A stretch of DNA of 64,000 bases from a virus, in the IMG/VR virus record IMGVR_UViG_3300044568_004364, one strand, 5' to 3'. Position numbers and translations under genes: made by a program. Positions 17,564 through 26,013 of this stretch are shown piece by piece. The notes below the pieces were generated by a model that saw nothing but the letters and a program-made list of their open reading frames with translations, ran no database searches and was not told where the DNA came from. Position 1 is the first letter of the stretch, and each line of letters opens with the position of its first letter.

Positions 17564-19093
17564 TTATGCGTAATCTTCAATCATACGCGCAAGTTCGCTA
17601 TCTGGAATTTCAATACCAGCTGCAAGCGCGCCTGCTGACATATTCAATCCACGTGATAACTTACGAAGGTTTGCGCTTTGCTTGCTCTTACCTTTGCGAA
17701 GTAATTCAACAACATGTAATCTTGATTTTTGGTCCAGTTTCATGCCGTCAGCCAATTCAATGGTGCCAACAATCTTCTCCATGAAATCATAAATTTCCAT
17801 TTCGGTTGGATCGATGTTAATAATAAGTGCGCGTGTACGCAGCGCACCATCTGGATCCAATTTATCCAAGCTCAAGTTGGAGATAAAGATAATCTTACCA
17901 GTAAATTCAAAGTAACGTGGGATTTGACCGTTATCGAGAATTTCTTCGTCTGTAAGATCTCCTTCAGGATCAACTACGTTTTTGCCCATCTTGTTCCATA
18001 CGAGCTTACGTACCTTCTTAGTATCGGTTGCCGCTTTAAGAAGGTTACGTGCTTCTTGGTCGCCCAATGCATCGTCACTATCATCGAAGAATACAACTTC
18101 ATTCTTATAACGGAACAACAAGCTATATAGTCCAGCAGCACTTGCGCTACCTGTATTCTTGAAGTAACCGTTACCATCTCTCAATCCAAGGTCGGCAAGA
18201 ATCTTTTCTGTGGTGTGTGTTTTACCTACGCCGCCTTTACCAGATACAAACAGTGCATTGGATGCGCCGTTTACTGTAAATTTAACAAGGCGCTCAAGAT
18301 CTTGCAATTGCGCTTCAAAGGATAGGCGTGTACGTTGATTTTCAAGCTCGTCAATTTGAGCATCTCCTTTATAGCGCTCTATTGAACTACCTTTGGTAAT
18401 CTTACCTGTTACAATACCAACCTTTTGCAAGATTTCTTCTTTGCCGCTCTTAAGTGCTTTAAGATCTTTATTAGAGCCAGCCCAGACATACTTGGTGCCT
18501 TGCTTGGTAATAAGATCTGGGTATTTCATTTCAAGCGCATCAAAAATCTTTACGCCTGAACTTTTAAATGCATTCCAAACTTTACCTTTGCTAAAAGAAG
18601 GGTCAACAATCATATCGACAATTTCGTCAAAGATTGTATCAAAGTCGTATTCAGCTGCCTCATGCAATACGTTTTCATATAGCGGTACACCATCAGCAAT
18701 AGTGCTAATAGATCCTAGTGATGGTGTGCCACTGCTAATAATGTCAGCAATCACTGGAAGTGTTTTTACAAGAGATACAGTTTGATCAAATTCAATGTGA
18801 AATGGCGCAGATGAGATACCATCCCAATAGTCAATACTCTCAAGGTTATTTAATCCTGCAGCTCCACTTTGTTTCCAGTTAAAACGTACGCTAAGTCCTT
18901 TACGCACTGCATAGAAACGTAATCCAAAACCAACACCGTTGGAATTTTGATATTGCTCTAGGCCTGGGTAGCGGAAGAAAACTTTACCAGTCTTCTTTTT
19001 AAGATAACGTGAAATAATGAATGCAGCTTTATTAACACCAGAGGTGGATAGCGCTTCGGATAGGTATTCTTTATAATGATTTAGGCTTGACAT
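17564..19093 (-). CDS. AAA+ ATPase with N-terminal extension
   Basis: Walker A GKGGVGKT, Walker B VVFFDD, IIFISN, ALRTR; tandem late promoters at 19099-19106 and 19113-19120. Confidence 0.75.
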   Translation of the reverse strand: MSSLNHYKEYLSEALSTSGVNKAAFIISRYLKKKTGKVFFRYPGLEQYQNSNGVGFGLRFYAVRKGLSVRFNWKQSGAAGLNNLESIDYWDGISSAPFHIEFDQTVSLVKTLPVIADIISSGTPSLGSISTIADGVPLYENVLHEAAEYDFDTIFDEIVDMIVDPSFSKGKVWNAFKSSGVKIFDALEMKYPDLITKQGTKYVWAGSNKDLKALKSGKEEILQKVGIVTGKITKGSSIERYKGDAQIDELENQRTRLSFEAQLQDLERLVKFTVNGASNALFVSGKGGVGKTHTTEKILADLGLRDGNGYFKNTGSASAAGLYSLLFRYKNEVVFFDDSDDALGDQEARNLLKAATDTKKVRKLVWNKMGKNVVDPEGDLTDEEILDNGQIPRYFEFTGKIIFISNLSLDKLDPDGALRTRALIINIDPTEMEIYDFMEKIVGTIELADGMKLDQKSRLHVVELLRKGKSKQSANLRKLSRGLNMSAGALAAGIEIPDSELARMIEDYA

Positions 19094-19123
19094 AAAACTA
19101 TTTATATAGCATTATTTATAAAA

Positions 19124-19672
19124 TTACACATTTAAGCCACTCACTGCACGAGACTTTCGTCCAGAACTAAACGGCGTATTGGCCACAGGCGTGTTATCAG
19201 GCTCTGTTGAGATGTTTGCCATAGGATCACTAATATCATACAGTCTCATCTTTGGTAAATCAATTCCAATAGTAAATCGCTTGTTGGTTGTTGGATCATT
19301 GTACCGATTCTTAAGTTGCTTAACCATAATTTGATTCATCTTGTCAAGTTGTTCGGTGCGAATAAATGCAAGCATCAAATCGGCTGTTGCAGGTAGTCCA
19401 AAACTGTTTTTTGTTAAAATGCCGTTGCAGTAAAATAGGTTATCGCCTGAGGTTGAAATGTCTGTAGTTTCAACCTCACCAACATCCTCAATAGAAACAA
19501 TAGGATCATTATAATTTAGGTTAAGATCACTTTTTGTATTCTTATCAATTTTTTCAGTTTCAAGCGCAATTAACATATCAGTTAATTCAAAAACATCGGT
19601 ATGTTCGGACACCATACCCTTTGTGATAAGCTCATTTGCTTTAATTAGACAATATTCTTCAAGCGGTTGCAT
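19124..19672 (-). CDS. 41: gp41 helicase fragment 3: IntC-2 (19406-19672) plus C-terminal extein
   Basis: ...DISTSGDNLFYCNGILTKN|SFGLPATAD...KQLKNRYND. Confidence 0.9.
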   Translation of the reverse strand: MQPLEEYCLIKANELITKGMVSEHTDVFELTDMLIALETEKIDKNTKSDLNLNYNDPIVSIEDVGEVETTDISTSGDNLFYCNGILTKNSFGLPATADLMLAFIRTEQLDKMNQIMVKQLKNRYNDPTTNKRFTIGIDLPKMRLYDISDPMANISTEPDNTPVANTPFSSGRKSRAVSGLNV

Positions 19673-20720
19673 AGTATTTTTCTTTAATATTTTGTGTTAT
19701 AGTATTTCTTTTTAATTCAAGATCTTCGTCCGACCATACAATGTATAAATCATGGCCGTACTGTTTAATAGTATTTTCTTTAATATGGTTATAAGCAAGG
19801 TTTTCTTCTTTAGATCCAAAGCCTTTCCACTCAGTTTCAGGACGCGCGTGCCAAAATGCACCATTATATTCAATTGTTATTTTTAATGATTGAATCGTAA
19901 AATCATAAAAGAAGTTCATGCCATTATAATGATGCGCAAATTCTTTACTTCCGCGAATGCCCCAAAAGATATCATTTTTATTAACACCTAGTTTTCTAAT
20001 ACTTTTATAAAGCGGGATGAAAAATTTAAGTGATTCCTTTGAGCATTTGCCATTCACTGCAGTTGTGCCAAACCGTTCAATCAATGTAGCCTTTCGTTTT
20101 TCGTGCTGTGCTTTTAATTTAGTCGTACCTATATCAAACCCATATTTTTCAATATAATTTGCATATGATAACTCAGATTTTATAGAAATTTGTTTTCTGA
20201 GAATTTCCGACTCGTTTAAATCATAGCCTCTAGCAATCCAATATTCAATACAATTGGGTAAATATTCTTTATAACTTAAGCTGTTCAATTTAAATTTATG
20301 ATGCTTCTTCTTTGAGTTTTTACTTTGCAATTCAGAAACCTGCTTTTTGGCTTCTTCGGCAGATAAGCCTTTAGCAATCCAATAAGTAATCGTAAAGCAT
20401 GAATTAATATTTACCGCTTTGGGCCGCGCCGCGTATGTGGTTTTTAACTTTTTACCTGAGCCTAAGCCATGTCTAATATCCGCTTTACGATATTGATTAT
20501 TAGATGAATTGTATTCTGTGAATAATGAAATATATGAATTTTCATTATTCATAAGTATGTCTTTAAACAATTCATATTTGCGCTTAAGGGACGATGATAG
20601 TTTTTTATGACCAATATATTCAGCTATAAATTGAATAAAATATTGTTTTTTATCATCAGGCAATTTATTAATTATGTCACGTATGGGTTTTCTCTCTAAT
20701 GGATCAGTAATAGCTATCAT
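19659..20720 (-). CDS. Vsr-like (EDxHD) homing endonuclease
   Basis: Repeated YWIAxG units plus C-terminal FYDF...IEYNGAFWH; lies between split-intein halves; late promoter at 20740-20747. Confidence 0.8.
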   Translation of the reverse strand: MIAITDPLERKPIRDIINKLPDDKKQYFIQFIAEYIGHKKLSSSLKRKYELFKDILMNNENSYISLFTEYNSSNNQYRKADIRHGLGSGKKLKTTYAARPKAVNINSCFTITYWIAKGLSAEEAKKQVSELQSKNSKKKHHKFKLNSLSYKEYLPNCIEYWIARGYDLNESEILRKQISIKSELSYANYIEKYGFDIGTTKLKAQHEKRKATLIERFGTTAVNGKCSKESLKFFIPLYKSIRKLGVNKNDIFWGIRGSKEFAHHYNGMNFFYDFTIQSLKITIEYNGAFWHARPETEWKGFGSKEENLAYNHIKENTIKQYGHDLYIVWSDEDLELKRNTITQNIKEKYYATA

Positions 20721-20751
20721 AAAATCTGTAGTATGATATTATTTATAATAA

Positions 20752-21930
20752 TTACATTTTGCCGAGTACAACAGATAGAATGTCTGAAACATTTAATCCG
20801 GTATTAACACTAATACGTTTAACATTCCCATTGTTTTTACATGGAAATACATGATCCTTCGAAACAATTATTGATTTACCGCTTTCGGTTGTAATCTTTA
20901 CACAATCTTTCATCTTATTATGATGCTTAAACATTACTGTTTTATATTCATCATTTGCAGTAATTTGGTCACCTAGTTTAACTTCATCGAGTGTTTTAAC
21001 TTGTCCATCACGCATAGTAACGGATTCAGTAATAGCAATACATTCACTTGTATCCGTAATTTCGATATCACTGCTGGAATATCCCGCTCTTGTAACTTGA
21101 GTTGCGCTCCAGATAGGAACATTAAATTCAACAGCCAATCCACGAATTTCTTCAGCAATACTTTTGATAAGACTATAAGTATTGACACTACCGCTCAATC
21201 CTTTCATGCGACTACTCGCGCAAATGTTTAGATAATCAATATAAATGATGTCTGGCTCAAACTTCTTTTTCAATTTGAGTTCAAGTAACAATGCGCGAAA
21301 GTGACCAACGTGTGCGCTCGCGGTTGGATATTCTTTGACAACAAGTTTACCTTTGGTTTTATCGCTAATACCTTTAACCTTTGTGTTGAATGATGCTTTA
21401 GTCAAGTCTTTTAATTGGTCAATACGAACATCAAAAAGATTGGCATCAATACGTTCTGCAATCTTTTCTTCAGCCATTTCCATTGTAATGTATAGTACAT
21501 TACGACCTTGTGCCAATGCAGCGCTTGCCATGTGACACATACCTAAGCTCTTTCCGCAACCCGTATTATGTGAAGAAACACCATCAGTATAGTATCGGTG
21601 ATTTTCATGCTCAACTTGAATATCAACGATTGGAATTTGCTTTCCTGTTTTTGTAACAATACCAATTTGGTATCCGTCTTCAGTCAGATATTGCTGTTTT
21701 TTAAGAACTAGATCTTTTGCATATTGCCAACCATCAATAGTTTCAAACAAGTGATTTTCATTGACTCGAATAACTTTTCCGCTATTAAGCAATAAAACGT
21801 ATTCTTCCCACATTCCTTTATCAACAAATGCTGATACGGGAACAAAACCATCGGGTGAATCTACTTCTATTGTGTATCCTGCATTCAGGAGCTCTTCAAT
21901 TTCTTTAATTTTAATAATTTTTTCGGTCAT
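20752..21930 (-). CDS. 41: gp41 helicase fragment 2: IntC-1 (21565-21930), middle extein, IntN-2 (20755-21042)
   Basis: HRYYTDGVSSHN|TGCGKS, YITMEM, IDYLNI, SATQ...DTSE|CIAITES...SKDHVFP. Confidence 0.92.
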   Translation of the reverse strand: MTEKIIKIKEIEELLNAGYTIEVDSPDGFVPVSAFVDKGMWEEYVLLLNSGKVIRVNENHLFETIDGWQYAKDLVLKKQQYLTEDGYQIGIVTKTGKQIPIVDIQVEHENHRYYTDGVSSHNTGCGKSLGMCHMASAALAQGRNVLYITMEMAEEKIAERIDANLFDVRIDQLKDLTKASFNTKVKGISDKTKGKLVVKEYPTASAHVGHFRALLLELKLKKKFEPDIIYIDYLNICASSRMKGLSGSVNTYSLIKSIAEEIRGLAVEFNVPIWSATQVTRAGYSSSDIEITDTSECIAITESVTMRDGQVKTLDEVKLGDQITANDEYKTVMFKHHNKMKDCVKITTESGKSIIVSKDHVFPCKNNGNVKRISVNTGLNVSDILSVVLGKM

Positions 21931-21983
21931 ATAAAGGTGTGATTTGTATAAATATAATGTTAGCTGGAACAGGAATCAATCTT

Positions 21984-22799
21984 ATGAAATTTTACGCTCG
22001 AATCTATTATAACATATGTAATGAAAATGTAAATAACAAAATTCATTATTGTAAAGGATCAAACATACATAAACATCATATCATTCCACGACATGCGGGC
22101 GGCGGAGAAGATGAAAGTAATTTTACTTACCTTAGTATTAGACAGCATATAGCAGCACATTTCTTATTGTGGAAAATTCATGGTATGGTTAATGACCTAC
22201 GATCAATGCATATGCTAGGAGCAAATTTAACATATGAACAAAGACGTATTGTTGGCAAATGGTGTTATGAGAATAAGATAGGAATGTTTTCAATTGGTAA
22301 GGAAGATCGAGCTGAAATTTCACGTAAAGGAATTAAGACACAAATTAAAAATAAATTAGGCATTCACAATCCAGAAAACTTTTCAAAATTTGCATCACTT
22401 GGTGGAAAAGCTTCAATAATTTCGCCCAATAACCCATGGGCGTATTGGGCCTCAAAGGAAGGCCGCTCGAAGCGTGGACATATGGGAGGAAAATCACATA
22501 TTGGTAAATTATGGATTCATAAAAACGATGTTATAACACGATGTCTTTATAATGAAATTCAACAAAAAATTGATGAAGGATGGCAATACGGTATGAAAGA
22601 TGGTGGAAAAGAATATGTGAATAACGGAGAAAAAACATTTCGTATTGAAACCAATAAGATATTTGAATTGCTTTTGCGTGGTTGGCAATTAGGAAAAGCA
22701 CGCAATTACCAACCAGATCGCAAGCGGTCTAAGAAAGAATTTTCTTATGAATCCTTACTCGAATTGGAGTCTCAGGGTGAACACAGCCGGCAAGAATAA
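21984..22799 (+). CDS. HNH homing endonuclease
   Basis: HKHHIIPRHAGG...N...H...H; GW-repeat C-terminal DNA-binding modules; plus-strand late promoter at 21947-21954. Confidence 0.85.
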   Translation: MKFYARIYYNICNENVNNKIHYCKGSNIHKHHIIPRHAGGGEDESNFTYLSIRQHIAAHFLLWKIHGMVNDLRSMHMLGANLTYEQRRIVGKWCYENKIGMFSIGKEDRAEISRKGIKTQIKNKLGIHNPENFSKFASLGGKASIISPNNPWAYWASKEGRSKRGHMGGKSHIGKLWIHKNDVITRCLYNEIQQKIDEGWQYGMKDGGKEYVNNGEKTFRIETNKIFELLLRGWQLGKARNYQPDRKRSKKEFSYESLLELESQGEHSRQE

Positions 22800-23379
22800 T
22801 ATTAAGCGTCTTGCGTGGTATACCTCCGCCTGTAATAACATTAAACATATCAAGATCAAATGGTATCTTATCTTCGGTCTTATGATAAAATTCATAACGG
22901 CTTTCAGCATTCTCAAGGTAATCGTGTCCTACATTTGTATCAAAAGTGACGCTTAATGCTTTACTTAATATAGTAGGAATTGAGCCTTCACTCTTTTCAA
23001 GATCTTTACCATCAATGATAGAGATTGACTCCATGATGGCAAGATATACTGCACGGTCCTTACACCATTTTTCGGTACTATCAATAATCCATTGCTCGTC
23101 AACCGTTAGGTGTTCTGATAATGCATTGATGTAATAGTTAACCTCGGCTGCATTGGCATTACGACTAGCGTCAGACGCCTTATATTCAATACTTAATGCT
23201 GTACTGTTTGGCAGCTTATTATACTTGGTAATAAACTTTAAGATAGCCTCATATATAGTGCGATGAATACCATCAAAATATTCAGGCTTTATGTGTGGCA
23301 GCGCTTTGCGACAAAATACTTCATTGTGTATAAGATTGTTAATGATTGTTGTTTCAAGATTTGTCTCCATGTTTTCCAA
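22729..23379 (-). CDS. 41: gp41 helicase fragment 1: N-extein plus 18-aa IntN-1 (22732-22785)
   Basis: gp41 N-terminal domain, GHDYLEN, GGIPRKTLNIILAG|CVHPETPIRVRIHKKILS*. Confidence 0.9.
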   Translation of the reverse strand: MENMETNLETTIINNLIHNEVFCRKALPHIKPEYFDGIHRTIYEAILKFITKYNKLPNSTALSIEYKASDASRNANAAEVNYYINALSEHLTVDEQWIIDSTEKWCKDRAVYLAIMESISIIDGKDLEKSEGSIPTILSKALSVTFDTNVGHDYLENAESRYEFYHKTEDKIPFDLDMFNVITGGGIPRKTLNIILAGCVHPETPIRVRIHKKILS

Positions 23380-23662
23380 TTTTGTATTCCTGATTTGTTA
23401 AGATATCGCACAAGACATCACCAGCAAAGTTTTTAAAGTCGGTGTCTGCGTTTAAGTCAATTATATCAAAACACGCTGGTTTGTAAATAATTTTATAGTC
23501 AAAATTTAATTGACACTTATCATGTTTCACATCTTCATCTACGCTTATGGTACCATACTTATATCGTATTCCATAGTACTTTGCGTTTGTGCATTGGATC
23601 CCACAAACATTTTGGTTTGCGGGATCGTCAATGAAAATATAGTCGCTTATTTCACTGGGCAT
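23354..23662 (-). CDS. 40: probable head vertex assembly chaperone gp40
   Basis: Position between uvsX and 41; YKYGTI...LNFDY...F...GDVL motif. Confidence 0.65.
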   Translation of the reverse strand: MPSEISDYIFIDDPANQNVCGIQCTNAKYYGIRYKYGTISVDEDVKHDKCQLNFDYKIIYKPACFDIIDLNADTDFKNFAGDVLCDILTNQEYKIGKHGDKS

Positions 23663-23667
23663 ATCCT

Positions 23668-24738
23668 TTATGCTTCGTCTTCGTGTAAGTCAACCATCGC
23701 GTCTTCGCTATCCGTAATCATGTCGCGTAAGCCAATGGTATACTTGTTCTTAATGTAATCTGCAAAATCAGTATTCTTAAATACGTTTTCCCAGAACTCT
23801 TTGGTCATGGTTGCAGCTTCACGCAATGAACCGCTAAGATCGGTTTTGGTTGCAGGGTTATGCGCAACATACCATCCGTTCTTTGGCTTCACTACATATC
23901 CAGCATCAACCGCAACAGCAAGTAATCCACTCCATTTTTCAATACCGCCTTTCCAACTTACACTAATTGGAATCTTGCTCTTTTCTTTAACAAAGCGGCT
24001 CTTCTCTACATTGATTACAAAGTGATAGCCTTGAATTTCGGTACCATCTTTATCTTGTTGGCGACCAATAATCCAAACATTGTCCGCACTATACATGATG
24101 CCAGTTCCACCGCTAACAATAGCTTTTGGGAACAAGCCAATTTCTTGATAGGTATGGTTGATTGCAAGCAAGCAAATGTTTTTCATTGTAAGGTATGGCG
24201 TAACCATACGGAACAATCCTTTAAGCGCTTTAGCACGTGTCATATCGGCCACGCTCTTTTCATTCATTGCATCTTCAAGTTCTTTCTTACTTGCAAGGTT
24301 ACCAACACTATCAATAACAATAATTACCTTATCTTTGCGCTCCATCTGCTCAAGCTGATTCACAATATCAAACTTAAGTTCTTCAATGTTTTTAATAGGA
24401 ATATGCAAGACACGCTTTGTGTCAATACCAAAGCTCTCAAAGTAACTCTGAGGACTGCCAAATTCACTATCATAAAACATAAGACATGCATCGCTATGTT
24501 TCTTAAGATATGCACTTGCCATAAGTAGTGCAAAGCTGGTCTTAAAGTGTTTACTTGGACCTGCAAGTACTGTTAGTCCACTTGTTAATCCAGCATCAAT
24601 GCTACCTCCAAGTGCAACATTAATCATTGGTACGCTTGTTGTAGTAATATCTTTCTCAGCATAAAATTCACTATCTGATAGGACATCCGCTTCTTTAATG
24701 CGGCAATTCTTTTTTAGTTTCTCTAGTATATTTGACAT
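23668..24738 (-). CDS. uvsX: RecA-like recombinase UvsX
   Basis: AGPSKHFKT, FYDSEFG, IDSVGNLAS, INHTY, EKSRFVKEK. Confidence 0.95.
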   Translation of the reverse strand: MSNILEKLKKNCRIKEADVLSDSEFYAEKDITTTSVPMINVALGGSIDAGLTSGLTVLAGPSKHFKTSFALLMASAYLKKHSDACLMFYDSEFGSPQSYFESFGIDTKRVLHIPIKNIEELKFDIVNQLEQMERKDKVIIVIDSVGNLASKKELEDAMNEKSVADMTRAKALKGLFRMVTPYLTMKNICLLAINHTYQEIGLFPKAIVSGGTGIMYSADNVWIIGRQQDKDGTEIQGYHFVINVEKSRFVKEKSKIPISVSWKGGIEKWSGLLAVAVDAGYVVKPKNGWYVAHNPATKTDLSGSLREAATMTKEFWENVFKNTDFADYIKNKYTIGLRDMITDSEDAMVDLHEDEA

Positions 24739-24780
24739 AATTTAATTTATTTTGTATAGTTATTATATACGGTTTTTTCT

Positions 24781-26013
24781 TCAATGTAAATGGAAAAATG
24801 CATCGAGTGGCTCAGTATTTGACTCTTCTTTAACGGTTAGAGCGCTGCTGTATACCTGTGACTTGTTATTTTGTTTGACATATGAACTTGGTCCAAAGTC
24901 AGTTTGACCAGCTAGGTAAGCCATGATCCCACGCATCATATCCGCAGCGGTACTCACAGGTACGTTTTGACATATATGATTAATCTTAGAGCGTGGATTA
25001 TCACCAGCTAGGTTAAAGTCATCAGGCATTTTCATAATGCGCATACATTCACGAACGGTAACAAATCGTCCAGTATATGCATTAATCAAATAGTGTGGCT
25101 GCGCGCCAATGAGTGAAGGAATTTCACCTTTGCCCATTGTAATACCATGCGCCCAGTAACCTTTCCCATCTTCAAGTTTCTTTTGCATTGCAACTGCACG
25201 GTCAGCAAAACGATCATATCCTTTATTACGCATCCAATCAGCAACATCATATAGTGTGCCATCAAATCCACGATCAGATTCTACAATACAATTTGTTGAC
25301 TTATTGATTTTGTTAAAGTAGTCCATGATTGTTTCCGATCCTGTCTTGTGCATGCAATAGCGGAGCCATGGGTTATCCATCGGATCATCGTTATTTCCGC
25401 GTATATTCATTGGATCATTTGGATCAATGGCACGTTCAAAGATACGTTCAACCGGCTCAAATTCACGACGGTGCCATGGGAATATTGGAGCGCGCTCACT
25501 GCGCGTAAAGAAGTAGAATGTACGCGGACGCTTTTGTGCAAGACCATGCAAGCGGCTTTCTGTATAATACAAGTTAAGACTATAACCATAACGCTGCCCA
25601 ATTTCATATAGGCGATCCGCTACAGGTGCGCCTGCACTCGTATATAGACGCGGCGCATTCTCTCCCCAAAATACTTTAGGTCCAATCTCACTCAATACAT
25701 ATTCTGCTGTGGTATATAACCAATCATTCACTGCACTATTTGCGCTGCTGCTTACGCTCAAGCTGCTAAGACCTGCGCATGGGCACACACTATTTACAAC
25801 ATCAACAGTTGATGGCTTATATGTTTTATCTTCATCGAGAAATACATAGTCACCAGTCCATCCACGCTTTTCGCGAATGTATTGTATATAATGACTATCA
25901 TTATTTTTAAACGGACTATAACTCAAGACATATTCTGGGAGCTGTCCATTTGTCGCTTCCATGATTCCTAAACTCTCTCCGCCAATAAGCGGGATTATTG
26001 ATGCATACTTCAT
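24781..26013 (-). CDS. C5 cytosine methyltransferase-like protein
   Basis: CPCAGLS (PC motif), GENAP, QKRPR, TVRECMR, QNVP; motif I altered to IPLIGG. Confidence 0.75.
   Translation of the reverse strand: MKYASIIPLIGGESLGIMEATNGQLPEYVLSYSPFKNNDSHYIQYIREKRGWTGDYVFLDEDKTYKPSTVDVVNSVCPCAGLSSLSVSSSANSAVNDWLYTTAEYVLSEIGPKVFWGENAPRLYTSAGAPVADRLYEIGQRYGYSLNLYYTESRLHGLAQKRPRTFYFFTRSERAPIFPWHRREFEPVERIFERAIDPNDPMNIRGNNDDPMDNPWLRYCMHKTGSETIMDYFNKINKSTNCIVESDRGFDGTLYDVADWMRNKGYDRFADRAVAMQKKLEDGKGYWAHGITMGKGEIPSLIGAQPHYLINAYTGRFVTVRECMRIMKMPDDFNLAGDNPRSKINHICQNVPVSTAADMMRGIMAYLAGQTDFGPSSYVKQNNKSQVYSSALTVKEESNTEPLDAFFHLH

Follow-up and report, generated by a model that had tools for sequence, protein, structure and literature searches.

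A phage gp41 helicase gene in three pieces with a different split intein at each break

The closest described systems to the one considered here are the fractured phage genes reported in 2009, which include gp41-1 to gp41-7 and in which each gene carries one break and all parts lie on one strand (Dassa, London, Stoddard, Schueler-Furman, & Pietrokovski; PMC2677866). In a fractured gene, an N-extein runs in frame into the N-terminal part of an intein (IntN) and a stop codon, the C-terminal part (IntC) runs into a C-extein, and the exteins together make up a complete host protein. In papers on gp41-1, this intein is employed for trans-splicing. Bacterial DnaB helicases carry inteins at the P-loop (site b) and in motif H4 (sites a and c), with b and a occupied together in some (Novikova et al., 2016; PMC4760082). 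Natural atypically split inteins are also known, with an IntN of 15–37 amino acids (aa), and an engineered three-piece ligation employs VidaL or Cat on its N side and canonical Cfa on its C side (PMC11185735). Here, we describe a gp41 helicase gene, first singled out by an original prediction from a model that read only the DNA letters, which lies in three pieces in a 64-kb stretch of DNA (64,000 nucleotides, hereafter the window) from the IMG/VR virus record IMGVR_UViG_3300044568_004364. Its two breaks hold different split inteins, and it is highly likely that gp41 is restored from the three polypeptides by two independent trans-splicing reactions.

Anatomy of the gp41 locus

The source record is 73.4 kb long, with a CheckV completeness of 37%. 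Its genes are of the T4-like cyanomyovirus type; the closest DNA matches in a nucleotide search are the gp41 genes of Synechococcus and Prochlorococcus myoviruses, and the uvsX–gp41 neighborhood agrees with that of P-RSM4. The locus was compared with 80 viral contigs encoding relatives of its middle fragment, on each of which seven protein segments were mapped; L-numbers (L003, L137, etc.) denote the relative contigs used in the comparison. In the window, gp41 is coded by three minus-strand open reading frames (ORFs) with host pieces of 195–198, 174, and 93 aa, and five ORFs occupy 19124–23379, as follows.

22729–23379, minus strand: gp41 fragment 1, with the N-extein at 22786–23379 (phrog_19 DnaB-like helicase, 1.7e-41)
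22732–22785, minus strand: IntN1, 18 aa, CVHPETPIRVRIHKKILS, the tail of fragment 1, followed by the stop codon at 22729–22731
21984–22799, plus strand: predicted HNH homing-endonuclease gene inside intein 1, likely start ATG 21984 (longer ORF from 21939)
20752–21930, minus strand: gp41 fragment 2 (Pfam DnaB_C 3.5e-13, Hint 2.3e-6)
21565–21930, minus strand: IntC1, 122 aa, ending SHN, the head of fragment 2
21043–21564, minus strand: middle extein, 174 aa, TGCGKS...DTSE, within fragment 2
20755–21042, minus strand: IntN2, 96 aa, starting CIAITE, the tail of fragment 2
19659–20720, minus strand: predicted Vsr-like (EDxHD-fold) gene, 353 aa, inside intein 2 and on the same strand as gp41
19124–19672, minus strand: gp41 fragment 3 (phrog_19, 1.2e-15)
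19406–19672, minus strand: IntC2, 89 aa, ending TKN, a 57-aa extension plus a canonical IntC, the head of fragment 3
19127–19405, minus strand: C-extein, 93 aa, starting SFGLP, within fragment 3

With a slash marking each junction, translation bears out the composition originally proposed for all three fragments: fragment 1 ends in NIILAG/C plus 17 aa, fragment 2 consists of a 122-aa IntC (SHN)/TGCGKS...DTSE/a 96-aa IntN, and fragment 3 of an 89-aa IntC (TKN)/SFGLP. The proposed extein total of 465 aa held in its ORF lengths (198, 174, and 93) and not in its sum: fragment 1 probably begins three codons in, with the ATG at 23370 (METNLE..., the start called in L137), which gives an N-extein of 195 aa and joined exteins of 195 + 174 + 93 = 462 aa. 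The joined protein aligns without gaps at both junctions with the gp41 of P-RSM4 (459 aa), and joining restores the P-loop AG/TGCGKS and the sequence DTSE/SFGLPATAD just as they stand in that protein; a complete Walker A motif, AGTGCGKS, had been foreseen. In all 66 of the 66 intact gp41 loci found by tblastn, the segments corresponding to the first and second exteins, and to the second and third, abut with a 0-nt gap. The helicase assignment is supported by a DnaB_C (PF03796) match of 49.9 bits against a cut-off of 27 and by a match to a DnaB-like replicative helicase of known structure (PDB 8dtp, 7e-45).

Both breaks have the full composition of a fractured gene, with an in-frame N-extein–IntN–stop, an IntC–C-extein, and a complete host protein, and at both the intein halves are separated by a free-standing endonuclease gene. 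At break 2 the genes share one strand; at break 1 the HNH gene runs on the opposite strand. A different nuclease in each split, HNH on the opposite strand and Vsr-like on the same strand, is what had been anticipated, and a phrog_655 match and a Vsr fold, respectively, now accord with it. The spacer between the IntN2 stop codon and the Vsr-like gene measures 31 nt, and the last 14 nt of the Vsr-like gene are shared with the start of fragment 3.

The layout is no assembly artefact, given that an exact copy of the fragment 2 protein is found on eight contigs, the longest of 171 kb. Among isolated phages, a nucleotide search gave short extein matches to cyanomyoviruses only, and among the listed tblastn matches to fragment 2 no isolate spans the intein parts.

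Two inteins and two proposed splicing reactions

IntC1 is homologous to VidaL (PDB 6VGV/6VGW) over residues 3–124 of fragment 2 (E 1.2e-12). In the alignment, the break in intein 1 (...RIHKKILS, then MTEKIIKIKE) matches that in VidaL (...IRLTKKG, then MIEEKKV), and the contiguous relative L011 aligns to VidaL from its N-terminal strand on. The features of a VidaL-type intein, namely, homology, a short IntN with block A only, and block B in the IntC, are all present, together with the class 1 residues Cys1, block B NENH (in IntC1), and SHN/T. Given the VidaL homology and the break at the matching position, intein 1 is, as judged from sequence, an atypically split intein of a characterized family.

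Intein 2 is a distant relative of gp41-1 (6qaz), which is matched by IntN2 with an E-value of 1.1e-5 (fragment 2 residues 311–367) and by IntC2 with one of 0.012; IntN2 is 34–38% identical to the IntN of the type seen in L008. Homology to gp41-1 is thus present, if distant, whereas the insertion point differs: the intein 2 site, TRAGYSSSDIEITDTSE/C, lies 12 residues downstream of the gp41-1 site (after NGY, seen in L008 and L009). The class 1 residues are Cys1, block B SKDH, and TKN/S, with the penultimate His replaced by Lys. Across the family, IntN C1 and H64 are invariant in 15 diverse members and IntC K88, N89, and S90 in 24, and the 57 aa that extend IntC2 at its N-terminus are likewise conserved. 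Matches to fragment 3 residues 1–95 come from at least 269 protein clusters. The DTSE/S inteins form a widespread and apparently undescribed family, marked by the 57-aa IntC extension and by a Lys that invariably replaces the penultimate His.

A complex prediction for IntN2 and IntC2 scored 0.59 against 0.01 for the best control, with runs agreeing on at least 93% of contacts and partner pLDDT values of at least 70. Of 80 solved complexes, 58 reach the mark used in this prediction, as do 2 of 110 mismatched pairs; scores of 0.60 or less that still reach it belong to 7 of the 80 solved complexes and to both passing mismatches. The model thus weakly supports a pairing of IntN2 with IntC2, and since the gp41-1 structure has been solved, its pass may reflect likeness only. 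The proposed comparison with known inteins has, in all, yielded relatives with solved structures for both inteins, VidaL (6vgv) and gp41-1 (6qaz).

The two inteins have little in common with each other. Their sole similarity is a 13-residue match in block B (E 0.015), a comparison of IntC1 with IntC2 shows no similarity, and block B belongs to the C-fragment in intein 1 and to the N-fragment in intein 2. Because of this slight resemblance and because the fold is cut at different points, no cross-reaction is expected; the mismatched pairs IntN1/IntC2 and IntN2/IntC1 are unlikely to form and probably could not complete a HINT domain.

In the first of the proposed reactions, the 18 residues of IntN1 would dock into the near-complete HINT domain of IntC1 (blocks B, F, and G) and join NIILAG to TGCGKS, completing Walker A by means of Cys1, Thr+1, and the terminal SHN. 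In the second, IntN2, of canonical length and with blocks A and B, would pair with IntC2 and join DTSE to SFGLP in the H4 DNA-binding motif through Cys1, Ser+1, and the terminal TKN. Each break would have arisen when a free-standing nuclease gene (HNH antisense, Vsr-like sense) inserted into the loop of a mini-intein, and the nuclease genes, placed behind late-promoter motifs, would be separately mobile and dispensable for the split. The intein parts are under purifying selection: ratios of nonsynonymous to synonymous substitution rates (dN/dS) are 0.04–0.07 for IntC1, 0.05 for IntN2, and 0.10 for IntC2, as compared with 0.02–0.04 for the middle extein; the Vsr-like gene gives 0.10 (against L003).

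States of the two sites and their nuclease genes

Both insertion sites are found in several states among the relatives. Site 1 is empty in some; it holds a contiguous mini-intein in L111 and L112 (136 aa, 92% identical to IntC1) and likewise in L011, L008, and L124; it is split without a nuclease gene in L123 and L132, with an antisense HNH gene in many loci, and with a same-strand HNH gene in L126 and L128. Site 2 is empty, fractured with a Vsr-like gene (L003, L083–L085), or split without a nuclease gene (L015). Some relatives carry a single fracture, at site 2 only (L003) or at site 1 only (L117 and L013), and L015 and L123 are further three-piece gp41 loci in the sample. Between contigs, DNA identity reaches 92–100% in cassette 1 and about 94–97% in cassette 2, compared with 72% in the first extein, and synonymous divergence (dS) is 0.14–0.25 in cassette 2 versus 0.96 in the middle extein. 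The cassettes are thus far more alike than the exteins, as expected for horizontally moving elements.

Two siblings, L137 (a 141.6-kb scaffold) and L138, come from independent ENA and JGI assemblies and are 96–99% identical to the window. In both, all three gp41 ORFs are intact and both nuclease genes are gone. A deletion of 763 nt, with copies of TTCATAAGA as its end points (22743–22751 and 21980–21988 in the window, minus strand), took out the body of the HNH gene, left the HNH promoter and leader in place, and gave IntN1 the altered tail ...IHKIDSCSS. Of the Vsr-like gene, only the last 44 nt survive a 1037-nt deletion between two copies of AAATA (20740–20744 and 19703–19707, minus strand). 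Because these scars remain, the nuclease-free state is derived. The split thus outlasts its nucleases, a fact difficult to account for if trans-splicing did not work. Taken together, the relatives form a series from an empty site through a contiguous mini-intein and a nuclease-broken intein to a locus that has lost its nucleases, keeps the scars, and is left permanently in pieces; the comparison lends direct support to the gene-breaking model of split-intein origin put forward in 2009.

The HNH ORF matches the homing endonucleases of phrog_655 (3.9e-16) and scores 17–18 bits with Pfam HNH, under the 21.4 cut-off; its place and antisense orientation are the same in many relatives. It converges on fragment 1 with a 71-nt overlap (22729–22799), such that the whole IntN1 coding sequence is antisense to the C-terminal tail of HNH. 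This overlap is kept in close relatives, and the HNH tail is not conserved in distant homologues.

The call of the 353-aa ORF as a Vsr-like nuclease is supported by fold alone. Its AlphaFold2 model, built with 13 homologues, has a pLDDT of 82.7, and the C-terminal domain (residues 222–353) superposes on I-Bth0305I (3r3p) with a Z of 9.8 and a root-mean-square deviation of 2.8 over 95 of 97 residues, and on Escherichia coli Vsr (1cw0) with a Z of 9.3. Foldseek gives probabilities of 1.00 and 0.93, at E-values of only 0.06–0.09. In sequence, the ORF has no Pfam match, no PDB match even with a 13-sequence profile, and no match to Vsr or I-Bth0305I. Among the 13 homologues, four residues do not vary (E229, D273, E284, and H291) and a fifth, D331, hardly does; they are candidates for the catalytic motif. 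The Vsr-like EDxHD nucleases of fractured genes have I-Bth0305I as their prototype (PMC3239194). The window protein shares the C-terminal nuclease fold of I-Bth0305I, has a long helical N-terminal region, and, as in those genes, is encoded inside a split intein; it differs in lacking a sequence-level match, and its nuclease activity is predicted only. A second Vsr-like paralogue, 33% identical, is encoded about 3 kb upstream of gp41 in L003 (L003:1088–1630).

A T4-type late-promoter motif stands ahead of each nuclease ORF, as the original prediction stated, and several further elements accompany the HNH gene.

21947–21954, plus strand: TATAAATA, T4-type late-promoter motif kept in HNH-bearing relatives, with the HNH ATG 30 nt downstream
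20740–20747, minus strand: TATAAATA motif right after the fragment 2 stop codon, with the Vsr-like ATG 20 nt downstream
22006–22033, minus strand: candidate sigma-70-type promoter for fragment 2 (TTTACA, 16 nt, TG-TATAAT; 11 of 12 consensus positions), inside the HNH gene
21951–21974, plus strand: HNH 5′ leader, codons N-I-M-L-A-G-T-G, a mimic of the intein-less gp41 P-loop target

The window has 13 copies of the TATAAATA motif where 5.9 are expected; 12 are on the gene-rich minus strand and the sole plus-strand copy precedes the plus-strand HNH gene. The motif may serve as the promoter of both nuclease genes. Both hexamers of the candidate fragment 2 promoter are kept in eight relatives, which coding constraint could explain, and sites of this type are not enriched (29 in number, 24.6 expected from shuffles). 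Regulatory hairpins at the nuclease starts, as in some of the loci of Dassa and colleagues, were also considered and set aside, as the folds are no better than those of shuffles. Two TATAAATA motifs 14 nt apart (19099–19120, minus strand) lie between fragment 3 and the next ORF, which encodes 509 aa (17564–19093) and has a weak AAA_16 match.

Directly behind its TATAAATA motif, the HNH leader reproduces part of the site at which intein 1 is inserted, a target on the other strand, without the rest of that target. Its core, GCNGGNACNGG at 21963–21973, is kept in cassettes that are only 45–47% identical (L014 and L134); the mimic is also found in L004, L005, L104, and L118, with changes mostly at wobble positions, and 11 nt of the leader, TTAGCTGGAAC, recur exactly in the target site of L019. 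The leader pattern has two occurrences in the 64 kb, against 0.45 expected. The mimic could either act as an autoregulatory operator or be left over from target capture. A tentative possibility, and one that we rate as rather doubtful, is that the HNH nuclease regulates itself by binding the mimic without cutting and silencing its own promoter, by analogy with the autorepression that Edgell and colleagues are said to have described for I-TevI in 2004. The divergent promoter region of fragment 2 overlaps this putative operator, such that HNH binding might couple fragment 2 expression to the level of the nuclease. If this were true, the locus, together with siblings that do and do not carry homing-endonuclease genes, would be a natural and tractable model of the whole course, from birth to fixation, of a gene in pieces.

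Upstream of gp41, the window uvsX gene (23668–24738) is uninterrupted (...SGG/TGIMYS) at the point where L137 carries a fracture (L137:1–1609), in which an IntN (GG/CVAAGTL...) and an IntC with the end THN/TGIMYS stand on either side of a 229-aa ORF. A 410-aa ORF (24781–26013, minus strand) adjoins uvsX and contains the motif ...VCPCAGLSS..., which resembles that of DNA cytosine-C5 methyltransferases and makes it a candidate for such an enzyme.

Alternative explanations and known systems

Several observations weigh against restoration of gp41 by splicing. Intein 2 ends in TKN and lacks the usual penultimate His, which is not a defining residue; at 89 aa, IntC2 is unusually long when compared with the 33–54 aa on record (PMC2677866); and identity to characterized inteins is only about 35%. 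The complex prediction for intein 2 is of weak strength, transcription of fragment 2 must cross the antisense HNH gene in a setting where sigma-70-like sites are not enriched, and splicing itself is inferred from the genes. The record, moreover, is 37% complete, and a second helicase gene could lie elsewhere in the genome of this phage.

That last point lends some room to the view that the fractured gp41 is dead and that helicase function is supplied by an intact copy, somewhere in the 63% of the genome not sampled, or by the DnaB of the host. The original prediction had itself raised an intact gp41 elsewhere as an alternative. Throughout the 73-kb record, however, these three pieces are the only gp41, and in a 97%-complete relative of 173.8 kb, the gp41 of which is broken at site 1, DnaB_C has no further match. 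A dead gene is also hard to reconcile with a dN/dS of 0.02–0.10 in exteins and inteins alike, with frames that are all open in the siblings even after nuclease loss, with the conserved uvsX–gp41 position of the locus, and with hundreds of clusters of the same fragments, and we therefore regard it as very improbable. Somewhat less improbable, yet still unlikely, is that the pieces assemble non-covalently, with the intein halves acting as affinity tags and no peptide bonds formed, comparable to the Aeh1 NrdA split. A fragmented phage ribonucleotide reductase that assembles without splicing has been reported (PMC3045599), and the Lys in place of the penultimate His of intein 2 would fit such an arrangement. 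Against it stand the residues that serve chemistry only (Cys1, the block B His, the terminal Asn, and the +1 nucleophile), which are invariant across both families, and the use of relatives of both inteins, VidaL and gp41-1, as splicing inteins. Since the P-loop is cut between G and T, an unspliced protein would hold more than 120 foreign residues inside Walker A.

The least credible of the alternatives, to which we attach hardly any weight, is that the pieces are joined at the RNA level by group I or II introns carrying the nuclease ORFs, or that the locus is an assembly chimera. HNH and Vsr-like nucleases do occur in phage group I introns as well (PMC2677866; PMC3239194), and RNA-level joining was the other alternative named at the outset. 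A search of 18000–25000 against Rfam, with E-values up to 1, gave no intron match and only a chance small-RNA match. The intervening DNA codes for in-frame HINT halves, the HNH gene is antisense, stop and start codons still stand between the pieces in siblings without homing-endonuclease genes, and the same layout is found in the independent ENA and JGI assemblies. Two independent trans-splicing reactions remain the reading that we favor.

Set beside the fractured genes of 2009 (PMC2677866), the locus shares the Vsr-like nuclease family, the uvsX neighbor, a spacer after the IntN stop codon that falls within the 27–51 nt seen there, and the existence of a nuclease-free variant (gp41-7 in that set). 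It differs in having two breaks, in its antisense HNH gene, and in an IntC2 longer than any in the range given there; moreover, the breaks in cyanophage-like gp41 described there all fall at P-SSM2 position 356, where neither of the present breaks lies. The window sites AG/TG.GKS and DTSE/S (before GLPATAD) fall in the same motifs as those of the DnaB inteins, and by our reading of the motif site 2 would be equivalent to DnaB site c or a; the published account of sites a–c and of double insertions describes no split forms, whereas both inteins are split here (Novikova et al., 2016; PMC4760082).

Intein 1 resembles VidaL as a homologue at about 35% identity with the same cut point, a short IntN, and a long IntC containing block B, and a short IntN with a long IntC is likewise shared with the other atypically split inteins GOS-TerL, AceL-TerL, and PolB16 OarG. 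It is distinguished from VidaL as another allele, for which the cause of the cut is visible in the antisense HNH gene and a closely similar contiguous form is at hand. VidaL itself reportedly originates from a T4-like helicase and has a 16-aa IntN.

The original prediction took a doubly fractured essential gene to be rarer than a single fracture, which is borne out in the literature and not in nature. A literature search for a natural gene with two split inteins returned only engineered multi-intein systems and single natural fractures. Of the 119 clusters that rank best among protein homologues of fragment 2, at least 32 are middle fragments by pattern match, 21 of them IntC1–extein–IntN (site 2) and 11 with an IntN at the gp41-1 site; as far as such patterns indicate, three-piece gp41 is common in metagenomes. 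The parts are each of a known kind and the mechanism is no surprise, and the natural three-piece gene is apparently without a published description. Together with its relatives, the locus documents, in an unusually complete, indeed near-complete, evolutionary series, how such a gene arises and becomes fixed.

The nearest parallel to fragment 2 is found in the engineered three-piece ligation (PMC11185735), whose central element has the same architecture of an atypical IntC, an insert, and a canonical IntN; that system was designed and tested in vitro, whereas the window system is natural and known from its genes. The locus would thus represent a natural counterpart of the engineered design, in which an essential enzyme is made from three polypeptides via two different split inteins, and its pair of an atypical intein with an 18-aa IntN and one of canonical length is the very combination that engineers chose and could supply a ready-made orthogonal set.

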